Source of the DNA: a bacterium
GTDB lineage: Bacteria > Bacillota_I > Bacilli_A > RFN20 > CAG-826
Reading direction: 5' to 3'
Length of the DNA stretch: 64,000 nucleotides
NCBI GenBank assembly: GCA_963623195.1
Contig: CAVFKA010000010.1
Coordinates: forward strand, 64,398-128,397
In this document: one piece after another, positions 29,778 to 43,998 of the stretch
How positions within the stretch are numbered: position 1 is the stretch's first letter
How the letters are laid out: each line of letters opens with the position of its first letter
The notes under the pieces: model-generated
Databases searched by the model: none
What the model saw: the letters and a program-made list of their open reading frames with translations, nothing else
Told to the model about the DNA's origin: nothing
Translations under genes and position numbers: made by a program

Positions 29778-32099
29778 TTAAGCGGCAAGAGCTTCTTTAG
29801 CTTTGACGTGTCTGTCCCAAAGGAAGAGACCGACTCCACCAAGGATGATGATACCGACAGGAATTGCCCATCCCCATGCGGCCCAATTGAAGGTGACGTA
29901 TGTGAGACATCCTAATGCATATGAAGTGCCAATCCAGAAGAGAATTGTCCAAAGGATTGAGAATTTTCCAGGCAATTCGCCTTTTGCTGTACCAATTGAG
30001 GCAAAGCATGGGATAGTTGTCATATTGAAGACGGCGAAAGCGACTAATGAAGCGGTAGTGATGTTACCACCTGTTGCGTTAGCGGCATTGATAATTGCTT
30101 GTAAGCCTTCGAGACCTTCTTCAGTTTCGGTGCCAACGGCTGTTGCTAATTGGGTAAGTGTGGCAACGACATTTTCTTTTGCGACGATACCTTGGATGGA
30201 TGCGACCGCGAATGTCCAGCCATATTGACCACCTTGGACATTACCGAATCCCATAGGGACAAAGAGTGGTGATAGGAATCTTCCGATATAGGCGAGTATT
30301 GAATCGGATACGCCTAATTCCTCATGCATGTCGATGAATTGGAAGGTTGGGGAGAAGCTGGATAAGAACCAGATGATGACAGAAGAAGCAAAGATGATGG
30401 TGAATGCTTTCTTGATGTAGTGTTTTCCTCTATCCCAAACATGTAAGGCAAGGGCTTGGAATTGTGGAGCGTGGTAGGCAGGTAATTCCATGATGAATGG
30501 AGGAACCTTCTCACGTTGAGTCGTTTTGTTCATGACGATGACTGCGGCTATGGCGACAATGACGCCAAAGAGGTAGATCAAGAAGGTGAACAAGCCTTGA
30601 TCAAGCGAAGTTGCAGCAGCAACCGCAGCAGCGATCGTAACTAAGAATTCAGCTTTAGCTCCGCAAGTGAAGAAAGGAATTGCACGGATTGTTTTTGTTC
30701 TTTCCTTATCGGAGGCAAGGGTTCTAGTGTTAATCATGGCAGGAACACCACAACCAAATCCCATGACCATAGGTAAGAAGGCTCTTCCAGAGACGCCAAA
30801 GCGGCGGAAGATTCTATCAAGAACGAAGGCGATACGTGCCATATATCCGCTATCTTCAAGAAGAGAGAAGAAGGCGAATAAGAGAAGAATTTGAGGGACA
30901 AATCCCAAAACTGATGAGATACCGTTGAGTACGCCATCATAGATGAATCCAATTAACCATTCAGGTGAATTCCATAAGGTTAAGAGTTGTTTGATACCAA
31001 TACAAATCATACCTTGGATACCGGCATCGTTGCCTGCACCAAGTAAGCCTTGTAAGATCGCACCAGGTGAATTGATGCCATCTGCGGTATAGAAGAGTTC
31101 GGCAAATGGGTAGAATTCCTCTCCATCGACGGTCCAGTGGATCAAACCTTGATATCCTTCGCCAAAGTTAACGCCCATAGCGCCTAGATAGAACAAATCT
31201 CCGGCGAATACAAGGTGGAATATTAAGAATAGAAGGACGATCATAATCGGTATGGCAGCCCATTTATTGGTCAAAACCTTATCGATCTTGTCGGATCTAG
31301 AGAGTTTCTTCTTTTCTTGAGTGACTCCGCCTTTGCGGTGGATTGCTAGTTTAGTGGTAATGAACTTATAACGCTTATCGGCGGTGTCTGCTTCATATTC
31401 CTCTGGATTAGCTAGAGGTTCGACACCTTCATAAGCATGTTGGTTCTTTTCTTTTTCGATTTCATCGCCTTCAAGGGCTTTAATCGCATGGAAACGAGGA
31501 TCGGCAATGCCATCACCCTCATATTCTTTCATGGCTTTTTCGATGATTTCCTCATCCTCTTTTGAGGCCCAAAGAGAAACGCCTTTACGTTCTTTTGAAG
31601 CTGTTTTGACGGCTAAATCCATCAATTCATGAAGATTCTTCTTTCTTAAAGCGGAAATCTCAATAACAGGAACACCAAGTTCCTTAGAAAGAGCATCAAC
31701 ATCGATACATTGATTGCTTTCAGCTAGAGCATCGCTCATATTGAGTGCGACGACGACAGGAACGTTCATCTCAAGGATCTGAGTGGTCATATAAAGATTA
31801 CGTTCAAGGTTTGTTGCATCAAGGACGTTGATTACTAAATCTGGTTTCTCCTCAAGAATGTAGTTTCTAGAGATTACTTCTTCTGGGGTATAAGGGGAAA
31901 GGGAATAAATACCTGGAAGGTCTACGATTTCGATTCCTTCCTTGCTACCTTTCTTCTTGTAGGTTCCAGATCTTTTCTCGACTGTGACACCAGGCCAGTT
32001 ACCAACGTATGCGCTGCTTCCTGTCAAAGAGTTGAAGAGGGTGGTCTTACCACAGTTAGGGTTGCCAGCTAGGCAAAATCTCAATGTTTTCTCAGCCAT
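29778..32099 (-). CDS. feoB: Ferrous iron transporter FeoB
   Basis: G-domain GNPNCGKTTLFN, DLPG, NMSD, then the polytopic permease. The start follows GGAGG by 8 nt. Confidence 0.95.
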   Translation of the reverse strand: MAEKTLRFCLAGNPNCGKTTLFNSLTGSSAYVGNWPGVTVEKRSGTYKKKGSKEGIEIVDLPGIYSLSPYTPEEVISRNYILEEKPDLVINVLDATNLERNLYMTTQILEMNVPVVVALNMSDALAESNQCIDVDALSKELGVPVIEISALRKKNLHELMDLAVKTASKERKGVSLWASKEDEEIIEKAMKEYEGDGIADPRFHAIKALEGDEIEKEKNQHAYEGVEPLANPEEYEADTADKRYKFITTKLAIHRKGGVTQEKKKLSRSDKIDKVLTNKWAAIPIMIVLLFLIFHLVFAGDLFYLGAMGVNFGEGYQGLIHWTVDGEEFYPFAELFYTADGINSPGAILQGLLGAGNDAGIQGMICIGIKQLLTLWNSPEWLIGFIYDGVLNGISSVLGFVPQILLLFAFFSLLEDSGYMARIAFVLDRIFRRFGVSGRAFLPMVMGFGCGVPAMINTRTLASDKERTKTIRAIPFFTCGAKAEFLVTIAAAVAAATSLDQGLFTFLIYLFGVIVAIAAVIVMNKTTQREKVPPFIMELPAYHAPQFQALALHVWDRGKHYIKKAFTIIFASSVIIWFLSSFSPTFQFIDMHEELGVSDSILAYIGRFLSPLFVPMGFGNVQGGQYGWTFAVASIQGIVAKENVVATLTQLATAVGTETEEGLEGLQAIINAANATGGNITTASLVAFAVFNMTTIPCFASIGTAKGELPGKFSILWTILFWIGTSYALGCLTYVTFNWAAWGWAIPVGIIILGGVGLFLWDRHVKAKEALAA

Positions 32100-32100
32100 T

Positions 32101-32403
32101 TTATTTTGCCTCCTTTTCTTCAACGCTTAAATCTGTGACTTTGACAATAACGTGTATTGCTTCGTCTTTTCTTAAGGTTAATTCATAACCTCTTAATGTA
32201 ACTTCTAATGGGTCGCCAAGCGGAGCCTTCTTTCTTAAGAAAACTTCAGCACCAGGAGTCAAACCCATATCGAAGATACGTCTTTTGATTCTTCCTTCTC
32301 CCTCAATTCTAACGATGTCTCCAGACATTCCAATTTTAAGGGATGACAAAGGAAGTTCGTCACCTAAACCGATTTGTTCAGGCTCAAGTTCTTTTTCTTC
32401 CAT
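32101..32403 (-). CDS. feoA: FeoA-domain protein
   Basis: SH3-like FeoA pattern (RIFDMGLTPGAEVFLRKKAPLGDPLEVTLRGYELTLRKDEA). Confidence 0.85.
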   Translation of the reverse strand: MEEKELEPEQIGLGDELPLSSLKIGMSGDIVRIEGEGRIKRRIFDMGLTPGAEVFLRKKAPLGDPLEVTLRGYELTLRKDEAIHVIVKVTDLSVEEKEAK

Positions 32404-32432
32404 AAATAATTTCCTACGCTTCTTATAAAGAT

Positions 32433-32651
32433 TTAGTTAGTTTCAACAATGATGTTTCTTGCGACATTCTTATCAAGAGCAAGTCTAGTCTCTCCAACAC
32501 GAACGATAATTCCACTCTCAGTATGAGAAAGAAGCCTTATTATCGTGTTTGGAACCAATCCTAGTTCTCTAAGATGTTTGCAAGTTTTGTCATTTCCAAC
32601 AATTCTGACGATTGTTAGATCTGTATCTACTGGCGCAATCATTATAGGCAT
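32433..32651 (-). CDS. feoA: FeoA-domain protein
   Basis: HLRELGLVPNTIIRLLSHTESGIIVRVGETRLALDKNVA. Confidence 0.85.
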   Translation of the reverse strand: MPIMIAPVDTDLTIVRIVGNDKTCKHLRELGLVPNTIIRLLSHTESGIIVRVGETRLALDKNVARNIIVETN

Positions 32652-32707
32652 AGTTAGTTACTCCTTATGCAATGATTATATGCGTATAAATTTTCAAATC
32701 AAGAAAA

Positions 32708-32725
32708 AGTTAGTTCCACTTAACT
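32708..32725. promoter_or_regulatory. Weak inverted repeat AGTTA-N8-TAACT in the feoA/dtxR divergent region (candidate metalloregulator operator)
   Basis: Seen in the sequence. The arms are only 5 bp. Confidence 0.2.
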
Positions 32726-32774
32726 AAAAAAATGGTTAGAATATTATTACTCAGTTAAAAAGAGAGGTATTTTT

Positions 32775-33149
32775 ATGGCAATTGATGCGTTAGAATCAGC
32801 AGAAGACTATTTAGAGAGAATCCTTATGTTGCAAGAAAGCGGAATGAAAGAAATTCACGCTGTCGATCTTGCTTCCTCATTTGGATATTCGAAAGCGTCT
32901 ATCTCAATCGCTTTACATAAATTAGAGGAGAAGGGCTATGTCGCTCTTGGCCTTAGAAGCCAACTTTATCTAACACCAGCCGGATACGATATCGCAAAGA
33001 AGGTTTACGATAAGCACCAAACCATCTCCGCTTGGCTTATCTCGATTGGCGTTTCTAAGGAAACTGCCCTTAAAGACGCATGCCGTATGGAACACTTCAT
33101 TTCCGATGAAACCTACGAAGCATTAAAGAAACAAATCGAGAACAAATAA
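32775..33149 (+). CDS. DtxR/MntR-family metal-dependent repressor (short form)
   Basis: SAEDYLERILML..., wHTH LASSFGYSKASISIALHKLEEKGYV, and CRMEHFIS metal-site region. It is divergent from the feo operon. Confidence 0.8.
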   Translation: MAIDALESAEDYLERILMLQESGMKEIHAVDLASSFGYSKASISIALHKLEEKGYVALGLRSQLYLTPAGYDIAKKVYDKHQTISAWLISIGVSKETALKDACRMEHFISDETYEALKKQIENK

Positions 33150-35871: not shown

Positions 35872-36004
35872 CTCTTTTTGAATTTCCCTCATATTGGTTA
35901 GCCTTTACAAACTAGTAAAAAGTAAAAGTTTTTTCGCTATTTTTGTGTTTAACTTTCATATATTTACGAAGTAAAATAACTTTGTCTTGAAAGGATTTTT
36001 ACAT

Positions 36005-36253
36005 ATGGAAACGAGTAAAAAAACAGCTCAGGCTTGTATTCGTTGCGCCCGTTGTGTTCAAAAATGCCCATTAGGCCTTAATCCAGTCATGATCATGACG
36101 ACGATGAAGAGTATGCCTGTGGATAAAGCAAAGGTGAAGTTATTAAATCCAACCGTTTGCGATGAATGCAAGAAATGCAACGATGCTTGTCCAAGCAACA
36201 TTGATTTAGCAACAATAGTCAAAAGAGCGAAAGTTGTTGCAAAACTTCCTTAA
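36005..36253 (+). CDS. rnfC: RnfC-type 2x[4Fe-4S] module only (82 aa; no RnfC_N, NADH/FMN or SLBB domains)
   Basis: CIRCARCVQKCPLGLNP...CDECKKCNDACPSNIDL matches the C-terminal RnfC/RsxC cluster region (CIRC..C...CP / C.EC..C...CPSNIPL). Only 133 nt separate it from the purB stop. Confidence 0.75.
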   Translation: METSKKTAQACIRCARCVQKCPLGLNPVMIMTTMKSMPVDKAKVKLLNPTVCDECKKCNDACPSNIDLATIVKRAKVVAKLP

Positions 36254-36267
36254 TATGAGGTGATTTT

Positions 36268-37431
36268 ATGGCAGAAGAAGTAATACAAAATAAACCTCAA
36301 GCTGAAGTTAGCGCGCCTAAGAAAGTTCATAAGCAATCTGTCGAATGGATGTTATTTGACGTTCTTATTGCCTTAGCTCCAACTTTGATTTTCTCAATTT
36401 TAGCCTATGGTGTTTACGCCATTCGCAACGTTTTGATTCCAGTGGTGACGATGTTCATCTCTGAAATGGTTTTCGTTCTTATCAAAAACCGCAAAGCTCT
36501 CTTTAGCAAAGATGAAAAGACAAAAAAGAGTTTCTTTGAAGTTCTTAACGTCGTTGATATTGTCTCACCAATAATCTCAGGCATTATCTTTGGCTTAATG
36601 ACTCAAAGCAGGGACACAAATCCAACATGGTTGATTTATTTCATCCTCATTGTTTCCTCTTTGTTTGGCATTATCTTCGGAAAACTATGTTTTGGTGGAC
36701 TTGGAAAGAATATTTTCAATCCAGCAGCGGTTTCCTTCATTTTCATGCTTATTTGTTTCAATAGCAAATTCACGGGAGTCTCCCACTATAACCCATTTGG
36801 GCTTTCTTTCTTAGGAAGTGCCTCATCTACATTTGGAATTGAAACTAATGCTACAGTTTTATCTGCAGGATTTAACGCTTCTAATTACACCTTAGAGAAT
36901 ATCTCATCTTTATTCTTTGGCACGTTCAATGGCGGAATTGGTGAATCATGCAAGATTCCTCTCTTAGTTGGCATGGCCTATTTATTAATAAGAAGAGACG
37001 CTGATTGGAAAGTTGTCCTTTCTTTCCTCTTAACATTCTTAGCAATGACTTTAGTCGCAGGACTCTTCATGATGAGAAAGGATATAAATCCAATTTATTA
37101 CACCCTCTATCAACTCTTATCTGGCGGAGTCATATTCGGCATGGCCTATATGATTGTTGAGCCAGTCACTATGCCTTTGACCGCCCCAGCTAGAGTAATG
37201 TATGGAATGATCATCGCAATCATCGCCGTCTTCATCCGTACCTTTGCTTCCGCTCCAGAAGGAATGGCCTATGCCATTGTTATGGGCAATGCAATCGGCT
37301 GTTTTGTCGATTACTATAAGTGGAGCAAAGTCAAGTTCGATTGGAAGAGCTGGGTTGCTATCGCCTCAATTGCCGTTGTTGCCTTAGGCGTATTTGCCTG
37401 GTGCATGAATGGCTATAACTATGGAGCATAA
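36268..37431 (+). CDS. rnfD: Rnf complex subunit D
   Basis: Polytopic NQR2/RnfD family: FNPAAVSFIF, GGIGESCKIPLLVGMAYLLIRR, LLSGGVIFGMAYM. A GAGGTGA RBS precedes it. Confidence 0.85.
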   Translation: MAEEVIQNKPQAEVSAPKKVHKQSVEWMLFDVLIALAPTLIFSILAYGVYAIRNVLIPVVTMFISEMVFVLIKNRKALFSKDEKTKKSFFEVLNVVDIVSPIISGIIFGLMTQSRDTNPTWLIYFILIVSSLFGIIFGKLCFGGLGKNIFNPAAVSFIFMLICFNSKFTGVSHYNPFGLSFLGSASSTFGIETNATVLSAGFNASNYTLENISSLFFGTFNGGIGESCKIPLLVGMAYLLIRRDADWKVVLSFLLTFLAMTLVAGLFMMRKDINPIYYTLYQLLSGGVIFGMAYMIVEPVTMPLTAPARVMYGMIIAIIAVFIRTFASAPEGMAYAIVMGNAIGCFVDYYKWSKVKFDWKSWVAIASIAVVALGVFAWCMNGYNYGA

Positions 37432-37435
37432 AAAT

Positions 37436-38881
37436 ATGTCAAACGAAAATAAGAAAAATAACGACTTACTTAAATGGTTGAAAGTCGGTGGCATATTATG
37501 TGCTATCGCAGGTGGTTCAGCCGTTATTCTAACTTCCCTTAATTTATTAACCGCCCCAATCATTCAAAAGAACAATGCTAGCAAGACTGCTGGTGGATAT
37601 CTCTCTATCTTCTCTAATTATGATCATAGTGGAGATAAGGTTGCCTTAGAGAGCGACACCCTTGCCTCATATGAAATTGCATATGATTCAAGCAATGCCG
37701 AACTTGGATATGTCTATACGACAAAATCCATCGCCGTCAAAGCCTATGGCAACATTACTGCCATGATTGGCGTAAGCGGATCAACTGATTCCCCAACTCT
37801 TGGAAAAGTCTATCTTGTTGAAGATTCCCTTTCTTACAAGACGACATTCGAATCCAATTATGTTGAGAAATATAACGCAAATCCATCTGATACGACGCTT
37901 AATGACGTCAAGTGTGGTGCAACATTCGCAGCTAGCGCTCTTCAAGAATTAGTAAATGCCGCAAGAGACCATTACATCTCAATTGGCGATCCTTTCAAAG
38001 AAGATTTAGCAAGCGATATTACAGCCATTTGGGGAGATAAAGCAGGATATGTGACCGATTATTGCGTAACCAGCAATTTCTCTGATGCTTCAAGCAATCT
38101 TAAGAAATACCATTCGTTCTATGAAGATGATACGATGACTGGTGAAATGGGCCGTCTCTATTCAGGCAAGTTCAAAGATGCCGCAGGAGACGTATATATC
38201 ACCGTTGGTTTTGAATCTGAAGAATATGGCAAACTTGTCATCACAAAGAATACTGTTGAAGATGAAGCTGAAAAGAACACGATCTCAACCTTTGTTGACG
38301 CATATAACGCAAACCCATCCATCGATGTTTTGAATACGGCAAGTGGAAAATACGCCACAGCCATCAAAGATATGGTCGTTGCCGCTCATTCTGATTTAGC
38401 GACAAACACTCTTAAGTCATCAACAAACGCGATTCCAACAATTGTTAACACAAGTGCATATAAGTCCATCTCCAAACCAACTGTATTAGAGGCGTCTTCT
38501 GACAATGAGAGAGTTCTTCGTTATTGGAGTCTCTTCTCCGATGAAGAAGGAACAAAAGAAGTCGCAAAAGTCTATAAGATTAACGTCGATATGGCTGAAG
38601 AGGAGAATCCTGGCAAAGGAATTTATGCCAATATCGAATCCCATACGACTTTCTTGATCACGATTTCTGGCGAAACCGAGCCAATCCTTGGCAAGATTGC
38701 AACCCTTAAATCTGAAGGTGGTGCAGGACAACTTAAAACCATCAACAACTACCTTGATAACTTTGATGGAAGCCAAAATGAAGATTCTGCTAACAAAACA
38801 GGTGCCACATATACCCTTAAAGCGGTATGGAGAGGTATCAACAAGGCCAAAGAATTATATTCTAAGGACTTAGCAAAATAA
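37436..38881 (+). CDS. rnfG: Rnf complex subunit G, expanded: N-terminal TM anchor plus three tandem FMN_bind-like repeats
   Basis: Each repeat ends in ...YNANPSDTTLNDVKCGATFAASALQELV, ...YNANPSIDVLNTASGKYATAIKDMV or ...FDGSQNEDSANKTGATYTLKAVWRGI. Canonical RnfG has a single S/TGAT(S/T) site and about 200 aa. Confidence 0.8.
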   Translation: MSNENKKNNDLLKWLKVGGILCAIAGGSAVILTSLNLLTAPIIQKNNASKTAGGYLSIFSNYDHSGDKVALESDTLASYEIAYDSSNAELGYVYTTKSIAVKAYGNITAMIGVSGSTDSPTLGKVYLVEDSLSYKTTFESNYVEKYNANPSDTTLNDVKCGATFAASALQELVNAARDHYISIGDPFKEDLASDITAIWGDKAGYVTDYCVTSNFSDASSNLKKYHSFYEDDTMTGEMGRLYSGKFKDAAGDVYITVGFESEEYGKLVITKNTVEDEAEKNTISTFVDAYNANPSIDVLNTASGKYATAIKDMVVAAHSDLATNTLKSSTNAIPTIVNTSAYKSISKPTVLEASSDNERVLRYWSLFSDEEGTKEVAKVYKINVDMAEEENPGKGIYANIESHTTFLITISGETEPILGKIATLKSEGGAGQLKTINNYLDNFDGSQNEDSANKTGATYTLKAVWRGINKAKELYSKDLAK

Positions 38882-38894
38882 GGAGGAAAGAGAT

Positions 38895-39653
38895 ATGTCT
38901 ACGAATTCTATTGCACGTTCTGAGCACAAAGCGAATTTCATCAATCCTATTTGGAAAGCAAATCCTCTCTTTGTCTTGCTTCTTGGAACATGTCCAGCTT
39001 TAGCTGTTACAACCACCATCGAGAATGCTATCGGTATGGGTATTCTCTTCACATTTGTTCTTATTGGTTCCTCAGTCTTGGTTTCTCTTCTTAGAAAATT
39101 CATCCCTGAAGAAATCGAAACCCCAGCGTTCATCATTATCATTGCTACATTCGTTACAATCGTTAAGATGCTCGCTGAAGCCTTCCTTCCTGAACTCTAC
39201 ACAGGCTTAGGCGTGTTTATCTCCTTGCTTGTCGTTAACTGTATCGTCTTAGGAAGAGCAGAAGCCTTTGCTAAGAAAAACACGGTCTTTGATTCATTCT
39301 TAGATGCTTTAGGAAACGGCATTGGCTATATCATTGCTATTCTTATTATTGCCGCCATCCGTGAAATCTTAGGAACAGGTGTTATTACAATCGGCGCCGT
39401 CTTTACTTTCATTCCAAAGACTGAAATCCCCGTCTTGAAGTTTGGAGATGTTGATTTATCGATCTCTCTATTTGCAAAGCCAGCTGGCGGTTTCATCGTC
39501 TATGGTGTTATTGAAGCAATCATCGCTTGTGTCAATATCTCTAAGGCAAATAAAGAAGCGGCAGCTAAGAGAGCTGCTCTCTTAAAAGCCCAAGAAGAAA
39601 AGAAAGCGGCTCTTGCAGCCCAACAAGCTCAAACAGCTAAGGAGGCAAAATAA
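38895..39653 (+). CDS. rnfE: Rnf complex subunit E (with a K/A-rich C-terminal tail)
   Basis: NPIWKANPLFVLLLGTCPALAVTT is the classic RnfE/NqrD N-terminus. AAGGAGG RBS. Confidence 0.9.
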   Translation: MSTNSIARSEHKANFINPIWKANPLFVLLLGTCPALAVTTTIENAIGMGILFTFVLIGSSVLVSLLRKFIPEEIETPAFIIIIATFVTIVKMLAEAFLPELYTGLGVFISLLVVNCIVLGRAEAFAKKNTVFDSFLDALGNGIGYIIAILIIAAIREILGTGVITIGAVFTFIPKTEIPVLKFGDVDLSISLFAKPAGGFIVYGVIEAIIACVNISKANKEAAAKRAALLKAQEEKKAALAAQQAQTAKEAK

Positions 39654-40243
39654 TGACAGCCACTAATTTATTTACGGCATTCTTGCTCGCTATAGTATCA
39701 TCGATGCTCATCAACAACGTCGTTCTTTCAAGATTCTATGGCATCTGTTCTTATTTAGGCGTTTCCAACAAAGTCAAATCAAGTGCTGGCATGGGCGTTG
39801 CAGTCGTCTTTGTCATCATGCTTGCATCATTGGTTTGCTATCCTATTTATAATTATATTCTTGTGCCAGCTGGACTTTCTTTCTTAGATACGATTGTCTA
39901 TATCTTAGTCATCGCCTCATTAGTCCAACTTGTCGCTCTCTTCATCAAGAAATATTCGCCATCCCTCTATAAGAGCCTTGGTATCTATCTTCCTTTGATC
40001 ACCACCAACTGCGCTGTTCTTGGTGTTGTTCAAGAAAATAATGCCCTTTCCTTTGCTGATTCAATGGCTAACGCTATTGGCACAAGCTTAGGCTTCCTTA
40101 TCATGATTGTTCTATTCTCCGCAATCCGCGTAAGACTAGAATCAACTGATTCCCCTAAAGCATGGAAAGGTCTCCCTCTTGCCTTGATTACCGCTGCCAT
40201 TATGGCGATGGCCGTCATGGGCTTAAGCGGAATGATTGCCTAA
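39653..40243 (+). CDS. rnfA: Rnf complex subunit A
   Basis: NNVVLSRFYGICSYLGVS and LPLITTNCAVLGV (RnfA/NqrE family). TAATG coupling to rnfE. Confidence 0.9.
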   Translation: MTATNLFTAFLLAIVSSMLINNVVLSRFYGICSYLGVSNKVKSSAGMGVAVVFVIMLASLVCYPIYNYILVPAGLSFLDTIVYILVIASLVQLVALFIKKYSPSLYKSLGIYLPLITTNCAVLGVVQENNALSFADSMANAIGTSLGFLIMIVLFSAIRVRLESTDSPKAWKGLPLALITAAIMAMAVMGLSGMIA

Positions 40244-40244
40244 T

Positions 40245-40454
40245 ATGCCTCAATACGCATATATCATCATTGCAATTGCTCTTATCATCGTCTTAGCGGC
40301 CACATTCTTCGTTAGTTTCATTCTCTATAGAAGAATGCCCGCCCCTAAGGGATGTGAAGATGTCAAAGCAGATCCCGAGATGTGTCCAAATTGTCAAAAG
40401 ACAAATTGCCCATTCTTCGAGGAATTTCACAAAGAAGATAAAGGAGAAAAATAA
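40245..40454 (+). CDS. Small TM plus Cys-rich protein inserted between rnfA and rnfB
   Basis: One TM helix, then C-x10-C-x2-C-x4-C (GCEDVKADPEMCPNCQKTNCP). Tightly packed in the operon. Confidence 0.55.
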   Translation: MPQYAYIIIAIALIIVLAATFFVSFILYRRMPAPKGCEDVKADPEMCPNCQKTNCPFFEEFHKEDKGEK

Positions 40455-40456
40455 AT

Positions 40457-40783
40457 ATGGATCCACTTACGATACTTTGGGGCGTTCTCGTCCTTGCAGG
40501 ACTTGGCTTGCTCTTAGGCTTCTTACTTGCCTTGGCCGCCAAATTCCTTCATGTTGAAGAAGATAAACGTATAAAAGAAGTTGAAAATATGCTTCCAGGT
40601 GCAAACTGTGGTGCTTGCGGATATGCCGGATGCCACGATCTTGCTGAAGCATTAGTCACCGGACAGGCAAAGAAAGTAACCGCTTGTAAGGTTGGCAAAA
40701 AAGAGAAAAACTTCGATCCAATTGTCGCTTATATGAAGGCCACACCAGGCCCAGATGGAAAAATTACTGAAGTTAGTGAATAA
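40457..40783 (+). CDS. rnfB: RnfB N-terminal module only (TM anchor plus CxxCGxxGC Fe-S domain; no ferredoxin domains)
   Basis: LPGANCGACGYAGCHDLAEALVTGQAKKVTAC follows a TM helix. 108 aa. AAGGAG RBS. Confidence 0.75.
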   Translation: MDPLTILWGVLVLAGLGLLLGFLLALAAKFLHVEEDKRIKEVENMLPGANCGACGYAGCHDLAEALVTGQAKKVTACKVGKKEKNFDPIVAYMKATPGPDGKITEVSE

Positions 40784-40845: not shown

Positions 40846-40921
40846 GGGACTTTAGCTCAGTTGGGAGAGCACCTGCTTTGCAAGCAGGGGGTCGCCAGTT
40901 CGAGCCTGGTAAGTTCCACCA
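40846..40921 (+). tRNA. tRNA-Ala (anticodon TGC)
   Basis: Acceptor GGGACTT/AAGTTCC with the G3-U70 identity pair, anticodon loop TTTGCAA, encoded CCA. Confidence 0.9.
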
Positions 40922-40928
40922 TTTAAAT

Positions 40929-41005
40929 GGCTAAGTAGCCCAGTTGGTTAGAGCAATCGGCTCATACCCGATATGTCGAGGGTTCGAGTCCCCCCTTAGC
41001 CACCA
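40929..41005 (+). tRNA. tRNA with anticodon CAT (elongator Met or lysidine-dependent Ile2; not distinguishable by eye)
   Basis: Acceptor GGCTAAG/CTTAGCC, anticodon stem ATCGG/CCGAT, loop CTCATAC. It has C12-A23 and A50-C64 mismatches. Confidence 0.75.
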
Positions 41006-41016
41006 ATAATTAATTT

Positions 41017-41044
41017 AGACCTGACAATTGTTGGGTCTTTTTTC
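41017..41044 (+). terminator. Rho-independent terminator
   Basis: AGACCTGAC-aatt-GTTGGGTCT (two G-U pairs) plus T6. Confidence 0.7.
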
Positions 41045-41129: not shown

Positions 41130-41205
41130 TTCTCATTGTGTGAAAATAAATGTTGAAAGGGTGTTTTTTGAATGCTAACATAAATTTACTCACATGGAGA
41201 AAAAT

Positions 41206-43998
41206 ATGGAAGATTTAAAAAAGAAAAGAGATGAACTTCTAGACGTAAAACCGGATATTCAATTCGATAATCCGCCAAGAGAAAAGATTTTAGCCTTAGC
41301 ACAAAAGATGACTCCGCGTAGTGGGGTTAGTATTACCTCAAGCGATCCAGAATATTATGGCATTGCTTGCATCACTAGCGATGAAGAAGCGGAAATCATG
41401 CTAAAGATGAAAATAAGAAAGCCATACACTTTTGCTCAATTGCTTAAGCTTTCTGGCCTAGATGAGAAGACCTTGCAAAAGGATTTAGACCATATGGCCT
41501 TATATGGCATGATTGAATATAACTGGGAAAACAAAAAGAGAGAAAAACAATATATTCTTCCTATTTTAGTTCCTGGCAGTGCTGAATTTACCAATATGAG
41601 ATGGGAAGAGATGGAAGAACATCCTGAACTTGCCCGTTATTTTGACCGCATGACATTGGTTCCTCTTGAAAAGGTAGGCTCTCTTGTACCTATGGGCGGA
41701 GCTGGAATTGGAATGCACGTCATTCCAGTGGAAAAGGCAATCCAAGCGGAAAACAAATCCGCTTCAGTTGAACATATCTCTCACTGGTTAGATAAATACG
41801 AAGGCAAATATGCCGCCTCCCCATGCTCTTGCCGTATGGGAAGACATTTCTTAGGCGATGCAACACCAGATGATTATCGCGATTGGTGCATTGGCTTAGG
41901 TGACTATGCAACCTACTTAGTCGAAACTAAAAAAGGTAGATACATCAGCAAAGAAGAATGCTTGAAGATTCTTGAAAAAGCCGAGAAGAATGGCTTTGTC
42001 CACCAAATCACCAACATTGATGGAAAAGATAAAATCTTTGCTATCTGTAACTGTAACAAAGATTCTTGCACAGCCATTAGAAGCTCTCAAATCTATAATT
42101 CTCCAAATTTGATGAGATCTGCATATGTTGCTCATGTTGATAAGAGCAAGTGCGTCGCTTGTGGAAAATGTGTCGAAACATGTCCAGCCGGCGCTTTGAA
42201 GTTAGGCCAAAAATTATGTTCAAAGAATGGCCCTATCACATACCCTACCCAAGAATTGCCAGGAAACGTGCCATGGGGACCAGAAAAATGGAACTTTGAA
42301 TATCGTGATACAAATAGAGTCAATTGCCATAAGAGTGGCACCTCACCATGTAAAACGGCTTGCCCTGCCCATGTTTCTGTTCAAGGCTATATCAATTTAG
42401 TTGCCCAAGGCCGTTATAAAGATGCCTTGGAATTAATCAAGAAAGACAACCCATTCCCTGCAATTTGCGGCCGTGTCTGCAATAGACGTTGCGAGGAAGC
42501 ATGCACAAGAGGAAACATCGATAGAGCTTTAGCAATCGACGCCATCAAGAAATTTGTCGCCGAACAAGACTTAAAGAAAGAAACAAGATTCGTTCCTGAA
42601 ATCGTAATGCCTTCTACAACCTTAGATCATTGGGATGAAAAAATCGCGATTATCGGTGGTGGTCCTAGCGGATTATCATGCGCCTATTTCTTAGCGTTAC
42701 ACGGCTATAAGCCAACAGTCTTTGAAAAGAACAAAGAATTAGGTGGCATGATGACATATGGCATTCCTTCATACAAGCTTGAAAAAGACGTCATCAATGC
42801 TGAAATTGAGATTCTTAAAGATTTAGGCGTCGAATTCAAAACTAATGTCAATGTTGGAAAAGACATCAGTATTGCCTCTTTAAGAAAAGAGGGGTACAAA
42901 GCCTTCTATCTCGCTATCGGTTGCCAAGGTGGCAAGAAACCTAACGTTCCAGGAGATGATGCTAAAAATACATTCATTGCCGTAGATTTCTTACATGATG
43001 CGTATGAAGGCAAGAAAAAGAAACTTGCTGGAAATGTCGTTGTTATCGGCGGAGGCAACGTTGCAATAGATTGTGCACGTGTTGCCGCACGTTTAGGCGC
43101 AAGCTCAGTTTCAATGTTCTCCTTAGAAAAGGAAAACGAAATGCCAGCAGCTAAGGATGAAGTTCTCGAAGCCAAAGAAGAAAAAGTGGACATCAAGAAT
43201 TCTTGGGGTCCAAAAGAGATCAAGAAAGACGAAAATGGCAAAGTGACCTCCATCATCTTTAAGAAATGTGTCAGCGTCTTTGACGAAGAACATCATTTCA
43301 GCCCGAAATATGATGAAAATGAATTGTTGGAAGTCAATGCCGACTATGTCATATATGCCATCGGGCAAGATGTCCTTTGGGGCAACTTGCTTAAAGGCGA
43401 GAATGTTGAGATGGCTAAAGGGAACTACCCTAAAGCAGATCCTATCACCTATCAAACCACGGTTGAAGATATCTTCATTGGCGGAGATTTGTTGACCGGA
43501 CCTAAGTTTGTTATCGATGCTATCGCCACAGGCCATAACGCAGCCGATTCCTTGAACCTATTCGTTAGACCTCAAGCCGATCTCCTTAAAGGTAGAAACA
43601 GAAGAGAATTCATCGCCTTCGATGTTGATAATGTCACTCTTCCAACCTACGATAAGACCCCTCGTCAAGAAGAAGGAGTCGATCCTAATGTTGAAGCATT
43701 ATCATTCAAGGATAAGCGCTTAACATTTAGCGAAGAGCAAGCAAAGAAAGAAGCATCACGTTGCTTAGGATGTGGTCTTACAATCGTCGATCCAAATAAA
43801 TGTTACGGTTGCGGTATTTGCACCCTTAGATGTAAATTCGATGCAATCCATCTTGAGAGGGACAACCCTAAAGCAAGCAGAATGCATTCAAATGAGCAAA
43901 AACTCAAGATACTCTTACCGATCATCATCAAACGTAAGATGAAATTCAAAAAACTTGCCAAAAAGCAGGCAAAAGAAGTTAAAAAAGCCGAAAAATAA
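41206..43998 (+). CDS. Large multidomain Fe-S flavoprotein: Cys-motif N-domain, 4Fe-4S, GltD/DPD-like NAD(P)H:FAD oxidoreductase and C-terminal 2x[4Fe-4S]
   Basis: SPCSCRMGR...ICNCNKDSC; CVACGKCVETCP; CKTACPAHVSVQGYI...ICGRVCNRRCEEAC (GltD-type cluster domain); KIAIIGGGPSGLSCAY; VVVIGGGNVAIDCA; CLGCG...CYGCGICTLRC. The start follows GGAG. Confidence 0.8.
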   Translation: MEDLKKKRDELLDVKPDIQFDNPPREKILALAQKMTPRSGVSITSSDPEYYGIACITSDEEAEIMLKMKIRKPYTFAQLLKLSGLDEKTLQKDLDHMALYGMIEYNWENKKREKQYILPILVPGSAEFTNMRWEEMEEHPELARYFDRMTLVPLEKVGSLVPMGGAGIGMHVIPVEKAIQAENKSASVEHISHWLDKYEGKYAASPCSCRMGRHFLGDATPDDYRDWCIGLGDYATYLVETKKGRYISKEECLKILEKAEKNGFVHQITNIDGKDKIFAICNCNKDSCTAIRSSQIYNSPNLMRSAYVAHVDKSKCVACGKCVETCPAGALKLGQKLCSKNGPITYPTQELPGNVPWGPEKWNFEYRDTNRVNCHKSGTSPCKTACPAHVSVQGYINLVAQGRYKDALELIKKDNPFPAICGRVCNRRCEEACTRGNIDRALAIDAIKKFVAEQDLKKETRFVPEIVMPSTTLDHWDEKIAIIGGGPSGLSCAYFLALHGYKPTVFEKNKELGGMMTYGIPSYKLEKDVINAEIEILKDLGVEFKTNVNVGKDISIASLRKEGYKAFYLAIGCQGGKKPNVPGDDAKNTFIAVDFLHDAYEGKKKKLAGNVVVIGGGNVAIDCARVAARLGASSVSMFSLEKENEMPAAKDEVLEAKEEKVDIKNSWGPKEIKKDENGKVTSIIFKKCVSVFDEEHHFSPKYDENELLEVNADYVIYAIGQDVLWGNLLKGENVEMAKGNYPKADPITYQTTVEDIFIGGDLLTGPKFVIDAIATGHNAADSLNLFVRPQADLLKGRNRREFIAFDVDNVTLPTYDKTPRQEEGVDPNVEALSFKDKRLTFSEEQAKKEASRCLGCGLTIVDPNKCYGCGICTLRCKFDAIHLERDNPKASRMHSNEQKLKILLPIIIKRKMKFKKLAKKQAKEVKKAEK

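Follow-up and report, generated by a model that had tools for sequence, protein, structure and literature searches.

A divergent three-domain RnfG with two predicted flavinylation sites in a reduced rnf operon of an uncultured gut bacterium

Introduction

How does an RnfG protein come to be 481 amino acids (aa) long, and what might the additional length do for a membrane complex whose canonical form, RnfCDGEAB, is a ferredoxin:NAD+ oxidoreductase? These questions are raised by an rnf operon in a 64,000-nucleotide stretch of bacterial DNA (assembly GCA_963623195.1, contig CAVFKA010000010.1, positions 64,398 to 128,397 of the forward strand), hereafter called the window. The RnfG encoded there resembles canonical RnfG (7ZC6_G, 189 aa; 9ERI_G, 207 aa; 8AHX_G, 237 aa) in its N-terminal transmembrane anchor and FMN_bind domain, in the threonine of its x-G-A-T motif and in its position within the operon. 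Unlike canonical RnfG, it carries two extra copies of the domain at its C-terminus. A first-pass annotation made from the sequence had read the protein as an RnfG expanded by internal triplication of its extracytoplasmic domain, with up to three covalent flavins. Here we examine the homology of the three domains, predict which of them are flavinylated, and weigh what the distal domains could contribute to a complex that has lost other parts.

Results

RnfG contains three homologous domains

The gene and the parts of its product are listed below; FMN stands for flavin mononucleotide and ORF for open reading frame.

37436..38881, plus strand: rnfG, 481 aa plus stop, an anchor followed by three tandem RnfG/FMN_bind-type domains; identified from the ORF, the ribosome-binding site, homologues and the position between rnfD and rnfE
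37436..37570, plus strand: lysine-rich N-terminus and single transmembrane helix, aa 1-45, hydrophobic core at about aa 17-38 (helix 10-58 in the structure model)
37571..38011, plus strand: domain 1 (d1), aa 46-192, canonical RnfG FMN-binding domain; profile match to RnfG structures with GAT aligned
38012..38440, plus strand: domain 2 (d2), aa 193-335, degenerate copy with the fold kept; hhalign matches to d1 and to the RnfG family
38441..38878, plus strand: domain 3 (d3), aa 336-481, distal copy; hhalign matches to d1 and to the RnfG family

A GGAG precedes the ATG at 37436 by 9 nt, and an identical 481-aa protein (P0001) is present in the public collection. Together with 22 others, this protein makes up a set of 23 homologues of 453-500 aa drawn from NCBI, ENA, JGI and Logan assemblies. 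In 13 independent genome loci the gene runs uninterrupted between rnfD and rnfE, and every genomic context examined for the homologues is an rnf operon. Apart from the unusual length, nothing speaks for a frameshift, a misassembly or a fusion of rnfG to a neighbouring gene, the kind of artefact that the first-pass annotation had named as fatal to its reading. The breadth and uniform length of the homologues, the uninterrupted loci, and the homology of the three parts to one another and not to a neighbouring gene (see below) refute such an artefact, to which we assign practically no probability.

An alignment of the 23 homologues (A1) was split at aa 46-192, 193-335 and 336-481, and the resulting profiles were compared using hhalign. 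Each pair matched with high probability: d1 and d2 at 99.3% (E=2.4e-20, 120 columns), d1 and d3 at 99.6% (E=7.7e-24, 123 columns), and d2 and d3 at 98.7% (E=2.3e-16, 113 columns). The alignments span whole domains of ~145 aa and thus reach beyond the motifs alone, with shared landmarks in the same order: G-Y/R-x-Y, V/I-G-x-S-G, L-G-K, Y-V-x-x-Y-N-A-N-P-S, G-A-T and a final helix. The three colinear repeats that had been read by eye are therefore borne out (E from 2e-16 to 8e-24), and the motif blocks lie where they had been described, at aa 142-167, 286-312 and 437-462. BLASTP with the window sequence alone gave E=1e-5 for d1-d2, E=2e-6 for d1-d3 and E=0.046 for d2-d3. Identity between domains is ~27-31% over the aligned parts, and ~18% for d2-d3.

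The AlphaFold2 model of RnfG (predicted local distance difference test, pLDDT, 85; predicted template-modelling score, pTM, 0.76) has a long N-terminal helix followed by one topology repeated three times. Each copy consists of 4-5 strands, a helix, a short helix and a long helix. In d1 and d3 this last long helix has T163 and T458, respectively, at its N-terminus. At the DNA level the only repeat left is 27 nt long (37861-37887 and 38293-38319, 85% identity), with a spacing of 432 nt that equals one domain. Since so little is still repeated in the DNA, the triplication is old. We regard it as nearly certain that this protein is an RnfG with three homologous domains.

Profile searches connect the domains to RnfG

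Standard domain models barely register this protein. A Pfam scan returned a single sub-threshold FMN_bind match (E=0.069, aa 406-471, in d3), and the curated cut-offs were not reached by PF04205 (14.2 bits against a cut-off of 22) or by the rnfG model TIGR01947 (13.6 bits against 102). The NCBIfam RnfG models matched weakly (E=6e-4 at aa 109-188, and E=0.05), and a precomputed Pfam domain is present in 0/23 homologues. Plain hidden Markov model (HMM) scans, which yielded sub-threshold matches only, were accordingly rejected as sole evidence, and homology to RnfG and FMN_bind was established by profile searches only. The first-pass annotation had proposed counting FMN_bind HMM hits, with a lone hit beside an unrelated domain counting against it. 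One sub-threshold Pfam match was all that the count produced, and the rest of the protein proved homologous by profile rather than an unrelated domain. Given that Pfam misses these domains, a plain FMN_bind count would wrongly seem to refute the triplication.

An exhaustive profile search gave 497 relatives, many of which are 170-200 aa long and match the anchor plus d1. From these we built an alignment of 87 proteins (A5), comprising aa 1-192 of the window protein and 86 single-domain relatives; Pfam FMN_bind matches 29/87 of its members. The A5 profile matched RnfG of Clostridium tetanomorphum (7ZC6_G) over its full length (E=5.2e-19, positions 8-174 against residues 6-185), with the anchor aligned to the transmembrane helix of 7ZC6_G from residue 6 and the flavinylated x-G-A-T of 7ZC6_G aligned with the GAT of the profile. 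The segment before GAT is shorter in the window RnfG than in 7ZC6_G. Further matches were obtained to RnfG of Acetobacterium woodii (9ERI_G, 2.5e-14), to that of Azotobacter vinelandii (8AHX_G, 2e-6) and to the FMN domain 8P2B (1.4e-5). Thus, the gene is identified as rnfG both by its place between rnfD and rnfE and by the match of its anchor and d1 to solved RnfG (7ZC6_G, E=5e-19). Additionally, d2 and d3 each matched the single-domain RnfG family at about 1e-18 (hhalign against A5, E=6e-19 and E=7.8e-19, respectively), which upholds an internal triplication of the extracytoplasmic domain.

None of the single-domain profiles of this RnfG gave a significant match against the PDB, and significance was reached only after the 86 single-domain relatives had been added; the d3 profile matched 8P2B at E=0.08 with the motif aligned. 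At the level of fold, the stand-alone model of d2 (pLDDT 93) had 8P2B as its only high-probability Foldseek match (probability 0.90, TM-score 0.62, E=0.18). Across the whole model and the d2 model, matches to 8P2B had probabilities of 0.84-0.90 and TM-scores of 0.62-0.65, and NqrC (4XHF) matched the d2 model at a probability of only 0.15. A Foldseek search of the whole RnfG model against the PDB returned noise except for 8P2B and was discarded. We conclude that the sequence-profile chain to RnfG is strong; the fold evidence is consistent with it and supports it weakly.

Conservation falls from the anchor to the distal domains

All-pairs identity along RnfG is 63% in the anchor, 55% in d1, 43% in d2 and 41% in d3, making the anchor the most conserved part of the protein and d1 the best conserved of the three domains. 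This gradient fits a d1 that docks on the membrane core and a peripheral d2 and d3. Across loci L001-L013, RnfG is the fastest-evolving gene of the region. It is 74% identical to its counterpart in L001, where the other Rnf subunits and purA/purB are 85-94% identical, and 54% identical to that in L006, where the other Rnf subunits are 75-96% and purA/purB 83-87% identical. The divergence falls mostly in d2 and d3, as expected of a surface-exposed part. In several distant members of the family, d3 scores best against d1 of the window protein, so that domain-by-domain orthology between clades is ambiguous and fits one triplication event as well as several.

Flavinylation is predicted for the first and third domains

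ApbE recognizes the motif D-x-x-[S/T]-G-A-[S/T] and attaches FMN to its last residue (PMC12052999). The d1 motif reads D157-V-K-C-G-A-T163, with C160-T163 encoded at 37913-37924 and the T163 codon at 37922-37924. C160, G161, A162 and T163 are invariant in 23/23 homologues, within a site of the form D/N-x-x-C-G-A-T, and CGAT is found in 83 of ~100 single-domain relatives. The d3 motif reads K-T-G-A-T458-Y (T458 codon, 38807-38809), an invariant threonine in the setting [S/T]-x-A-T. Besides T458, only two residues of d3 are invariant, in a domain whose mean identity is 41%. The first-pass annotation had stated that repeats 1 and 3 keep the threonine of xGAT; this stands for T163 and T458 themselves, while the glycine of the d3 motif varies among homologues.

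No conserved flavinylation site was found in d2, whose motif columns are empty or variable in the alignment. The domain keeps Y-N-x-x-P (Y290, N291 and P294 are invariant), and its SGKYAT reads S-G-T-Y-C-E or S-G-K-Y-C-E in the nearest relatives, with glutamate in place of threonine. As had been suspected in the first-pass annotation, d2 is probably unflavinylated, judging from its sequence. The motif is absent from d2 in every member of the window clade, and this RnfG does not bear out the earlier figure of up to three covalent flavins; with no conserved site in d2, two flavins are to be expected, not three. We consider it reasonably probable that these are attached at T163 and T458.

In some other proteins of the wider family no domain lacks a site, with three of three in P0022, P0027, P0034, P0048, P0050 and P0062, and five of five in P0033. 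The loss of the d2 site is thus a derived feature.

The operon encodes a complete membrane core with reduced RnfC and RnfB

The remaining features of the operon are as follows.

35987..36253, plus strand: mini-rnfC, 88 aa, two CxxCxxCxxxCP motifs; matches rnfC TIGR01945 and solved RnfC
36268..37431, plus strand: rnfD, 387 aa, flavinylation threonine T-N-A-T196 (codon 36853-36855); PF03116 E=6e-58
38895..39653, plus strand: rnfE, 252 aa; PF02508 E=9e-60, rnfE TIGR01948 above cut-off
39653..40243, plus strand: rnfA, 196 aa; PF02508 E=5e-54, rnfA TIGR01943 E=6e-67
40245..40454, plus strand: small Cys-rich gene, 69 aa from ATG (72 aa from TTG at 40236); ORF
40457..40783, plus strand: mini-rnfB, 108 aa, transmembrane helix and membrane-proximal Fe-S domain; PF04060 E=1e-12
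40846..41038, plus strand: operon end, with tRNA-Ala (40846-40921), tRNA-Met (40929-41005) and a terminator-like hairpin (41017-41038)

The order mini-rnfC, rnfD, rnfG, rnfE, rnfA, small ORF and mini-rnfB is the same in the 13 related loci. The membrane core of RnfD, RnfE and RnfA gives strong family matches and keeps its cofactor ligands. Every window-clade locus retains the RnfD threonine, which aligns with T-G-A-T of 8AHX_D, and so do nearly all of the related loci that can be aligned without ambiguity over this region. The GxCP and NCxVLG cysteine motifs can be seen in the translations of RnfA and RnfE. All membrane-proximal cofactor ligands are present in this reduced Rnf.

Mini-rnfC corresponds to the C-terminal 2x[4Fe-4S] domain of RnfC only, matching positions 355-429 of 435 in TIGR01945 and residues 361-431 of 8AHX_C, 364-432 of 9ERI_C and 363-428 of 7ZC6_C. 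The NADH/FMN-binding module of RnfC (RnfC_N, Complex1_51K, SLBB) was found nowhere in the operon, and tblastn with a full-length relative found nothing else in the window. The gene is kept at ~82-88 aa in the 13 related loci, whereas outgroup RnfC proteins are 430-436 aa long. Mini-rnfB likewise matches only residues 4-77 of the 274-aa 7ZC6_B and lacks ferredoxin-type domains, which were not found elsewhere in the operon or the window. This form, 96-108 aa long, recurs in all relatives and outgroups, even where the operon encodes a full-length RnfC. Identity among loci L001-L011 is 92-99% for mini-RnfB and 77-91% for mini-RnfC (58-64% in L012-L013). These stubs are well conserved and are thus functional genes, not debris.

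The small Cys-rich protein comprises one transmembrane helix followed by four conserved cysteines (PxPKGC...CxxCx5C) and has no Pfam or NCBIfam match. Its gene occupies the same position, between rnfA and mini-rnfB, in the related and outgroup loci examined, and it may be an extra Rnf subunit or an assembly factor. Throughout the lineage, a mini RnfB and this small protein are standard. The 88-aa RnfC stub, by comparison, occurs together with the lack of an operon-linked ApbE in the window clade only, and may be further out of the ordinary than the expansion of RnfG.

RnfG varies in domain number among related operons

Thirteen loci from uncultured gut metagenome-assembled genomes (MAGs) share the arrangement feoB ... 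purA-purB-miniC-D-G(3 domains)-E-A-small ORF-miniB. More distant three-domain homologues (P0019, P0022 and P0023, ~30% identity) belong to another operon type, which encodes a full-length RnfC (436 aa), D, G(3 domains), E, A, the small Cys protein, miniB, a lipoprotein ApbE, NusG_II and Hpre_diP_synt_I; for P0022 and P0023, the lipoprotein ApbE directly follows the rnfCDGEA-X-B operon. The same operon type also occurs with a single-domain RnfG of 181-193 aa (L014, L024 and L027). In a survey of 170 proteins, 105 had one domain, 22 had two, 39 had three and 3 had four to six; the remaining one, P0153, is a long protein in which these profiles detected no domain. RnfG has thus been expanded in some branches.

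The module of ApbE (lipoprotein), NusG_II and Hpre_diP_synt_I lies downstream of mini-rnfB in outgroups L014, L015-L017, L020-L021 and L024-L027, and stands alone in L028. It is absent beside the operon in the window clade. Database searches for ApbE and context look-ups found it only in outgroup operons and as one unlinked module in another Bacilli MAG (L028).

Discussion

A possible outward branch and its alternatives

We favour a reading in which the triplicated RnfG carries two covalent flavins and provides an outward branch from the Rnf core; for this statement as a whole we judge the balance to tip slightly in its favour. Under it, d1 would take the normal RnfG position, with its covalent FMN between the iron-sulfur centre of RnfA/E and the RnfD flavin. 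The flavin-free d2 would act as a spacer or scaffold, and d3 would hold the second covalent FMN farther out from the membrane core. The d3 flavin could then serve as a side branch through which an extracytosolic partner or acceptor exchanges electrons with the Rnf core, the role proposed for multi-flavinylated RnfGs by Méheust et al. (2021). We put forward this outward-branch function, taken by itself, as a tentative proposal that falls short of an even chance. Because RnfC is without its NADH module and RnfB without its ferredoxin domains, the outward branch could be the main route, not a side route. In a further and unlikely version, the Rnf of this clade of uncultured gut bacteria (Mollicutes/Erysipelotrichaceae type), stripped of both cytoplasmic substrate modules and extended in RnfG, would no longer be a ferredoxin:NAD+ oxidoreductase but a transmembrane electron conduit ending in the d3 flavin, with the four-Cys mini-protein as an added subunit or assembly factor. 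If true, this would amount to a system for flavin-based extracellular electron transfer or extracytosolic reduction with a new architecture.

Several observations weigh against the favoured reading. The d1 site has cysteine where the ApbE consensus has serine or threonine, and the d3 site is without the aspartate at -6 and has G, N, Q, D or T at the position of the glycine. ApbE was not found in the 64-kb window, either by a motif regular expression over the ORFs or by tblastn with two ApbE proteins, nor in the flanks of L001-L013, and a profile search for ApbE gave no protein assignable to an assembly of the window clade. With a flavin-free d2 between d1 and d3, the two flavins could be too distant for electron transfer. 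Additionally, no candidate gene for an extracytosolic acceptor is linked to the operon, and Foldseek gave no match at E<=1e-3 for the whole RnfG model or the d2 model. Every element of the reading, from the covalent FMN to the geometry and the partner, is a prediction.

Some of these observations speak for other explanations. The lack of a linked acceptor gene fits a static relay within the core, in which the d3 flavin would lie on the normal path and the distance between the RnfA/E centre and the flavin of RnfD would be spanned by two fixed flavins. Otherwise, both in Rnf and in Nqr, it is the motion of a single RnfG or NqrC domain that spans it. T163 and T458 are both strongly constrained, the pTM of the model points to three domains packed compactly in a set arrangement, and the occurrence of the three-domain form together with a full-length RnfC fits ordinary Fd:NAD+ function (Fd, ferredoxin). 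However, single-domain proteins make up the majority of the surveyed relatives (105/170), which indicates that the core needs no second flavin, and d2 and d3 evolve faster than d1, which would be unexpected if d3 touched RnfD. A static relay strikes us as improbable.

The departure of the d3 motif from the consensus and the lack of ApbE near the operon in the window clade would also be accounted for if d2 and d3 had no redox role at all and served a host-associated bacterium of Mollicutes/Erysipelotrichaceae type as structural or surface decoration (scaffold, shield, adhesion or an antigenically variable surface), with d1 alone or no domain flavinylated. In keeping with this, RnfG evolves faster than anything in its neighbourhood (74% identity to L001 against 85-94% for the others) and the d2 site is already lost. 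Yet T458 remains invariant in homologues whose d3 identity falls to 18-25%, and relatives keep three of three or five of five GAT sites, some of them in operons with ApbE. We hold a purely decorative role to be quite unlikely, and retain two flavins with a possible outward branch as the preferred reading.

Comparison with known systems

The first-pass annotation had supposed that a multi-domain RnfG was undescribed in an Rnf core. This was wrong: rnf clusters with multi-flavinylated RnfGs have been reported, together with a proposed branch to extracytosolic acceptors (Méheust et al. 2021, eLife 10:e66878, Fig. 6C, 6H). Like those proteins, the RnfG of the window has more than one extracytosolic FMN-binding domain and more than one predicted site (T163 in CGAT, T458 in TGAT) and is encoded inside an rnf cluster. 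Unlike them, its domains lie below the Pfam threshold, whereas theirs were found with Pfam FMN_bind; its middle site is lost and its first reads C-G-A-T, not [S/T]-G-A-T; and its operon encodes a shortened RnfC, a mini RnfB and, in addition, a small Cys-rich protein. The supplement text of the 2021 study has no entries for these lineages, and a literature search for truncated RnfC or RnfB, or for Rnf in RF39 or Mollicutes, found nothing specific. The operon shares the D/E/A core with canonical Rnf and differs from it in an RnfC and an RnfB that are without the cytoplasmic substrate modules.

The tandem FMN_bind domains of SaFMN3 and CbFMN4 are each flavinylated by ApbE (PMC10339131; Tong et al. 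2023, BBA Adv 4:100097; PDB 8P2B). These proteins likewise place tandem FMN_bind domains outside the cell, and 8P2B is the only high-probability match for d2 and d3. However, they are soluble, with near-identical domains that are all flavinylated, and occur outside Rnf, whereas the window RnfG is anchored in the membrane and has one degenerate domain. Listeria PplA, which the first-pass annotation had invoked, is a monoderm surface protein with more than one FMN_bind domain, and the notion that flavins form a chain outside the membrane carries over from it as an analogy only. PplA, a lipoprotein, receives its electrons from Ndh2, demethylmenaquinone and EetAB, in a locus that unites it with Ndh2, EetA/B, DmkA/B and FmnA/B, whereas the window RnfG is held by a transmembrane helix and would be fed by the Rnf core. 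The window RnfG lacks a lipobox, and genes for Ndh2, EetAB or Dmk are missing nearby, the operon consisting of rnf genes only. NQR/RNF-like two-gene systems (Méheust 2021; Huang et al. 2024 preprint, PMC10979944), for which one-way electron transport to an extracytosolic FMN domain has been proposed, resemble the operon in being reduced Nqr/Rnf derivatives. They differ in pairing one RnfG-like protein with an RnfD-like protein that carries an NqrF-type NAD-binding domain as a fusion, whereas the window has RnfD, G, E and A plus C and B stubs and no linked NAD-binding domain.

Beyond these precedents, what appears to be new in RnfG is a divergent family missed by standard domain models, with a C-G-A-T site and a degenerate central domain; what appears to be new in the window clade is the combination of a truncated RnfC, a mini RnfB, an extra four-Cys mini-protein and no ApbE gene nearby. 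Surveys based on Pfam FMN_bind miss these RnfGs and so undercount a family that spans one to six domains among the proteins surveyed here. Multi-flavinylated RnfGs are so far known from bioinformatic listing, and close relatives with 1, 2, 3 or 5 predicted flavins, some of them with a flavin-free pseudo-domain, offer a series with which to address the question of electron wires. In the window clade the RnfG expansion coincides with the loss of the RnfC NADH module. These abundant and little-understood gut bacteria offer a setting in which to ask what is left for an Rnf membrane core to do once its usual substrates are gone. Were the distal flavin an outlet, low-potential electrons of the cytoplasm would be linked directly to extracellular chemistry. 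The interest of RnfG alone is moderate, and would be higher if the stripped-down Rnf were an outward electron conduit.

Other genes at the locus and in related contigs

A 934-aa multidomain Fe-S flavoprotein encoded downstream (41194-43998), with Fer4, Fer4_20 and a GltD-like Pyr_redox_2 domain and a first ~280 aa that match no domain, was considered as a substitute NAD(P)H module and rejected, as two tRNA genes and the terminator-like hairpin intervene. It was not found in the flanks of related loci and is probably unrelated to the rnf operon.

Just upstream of purA-purB-rnf, at window positions 29778-33149, lie feoB/feoA (minus strand) and a gene for a DtxR-type iron-dependent repressor, a synteny kept across the clade (L001-L011 and L018). 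Extracytosolic flavins could conceivably be tied to the reduction or uptake of iron, but the synteny may simply mirror relatedness.

Lastly, in the outgroup locus L015 (943-2495, a JGI contig) frameshifts interrupt rnfC and the beginning of rnfD. Related contigs (L016, L020 and L022) carry both genes intact, and the frameshifts are probably an assembly or sequencing error rather than the mark of a pseudogene.

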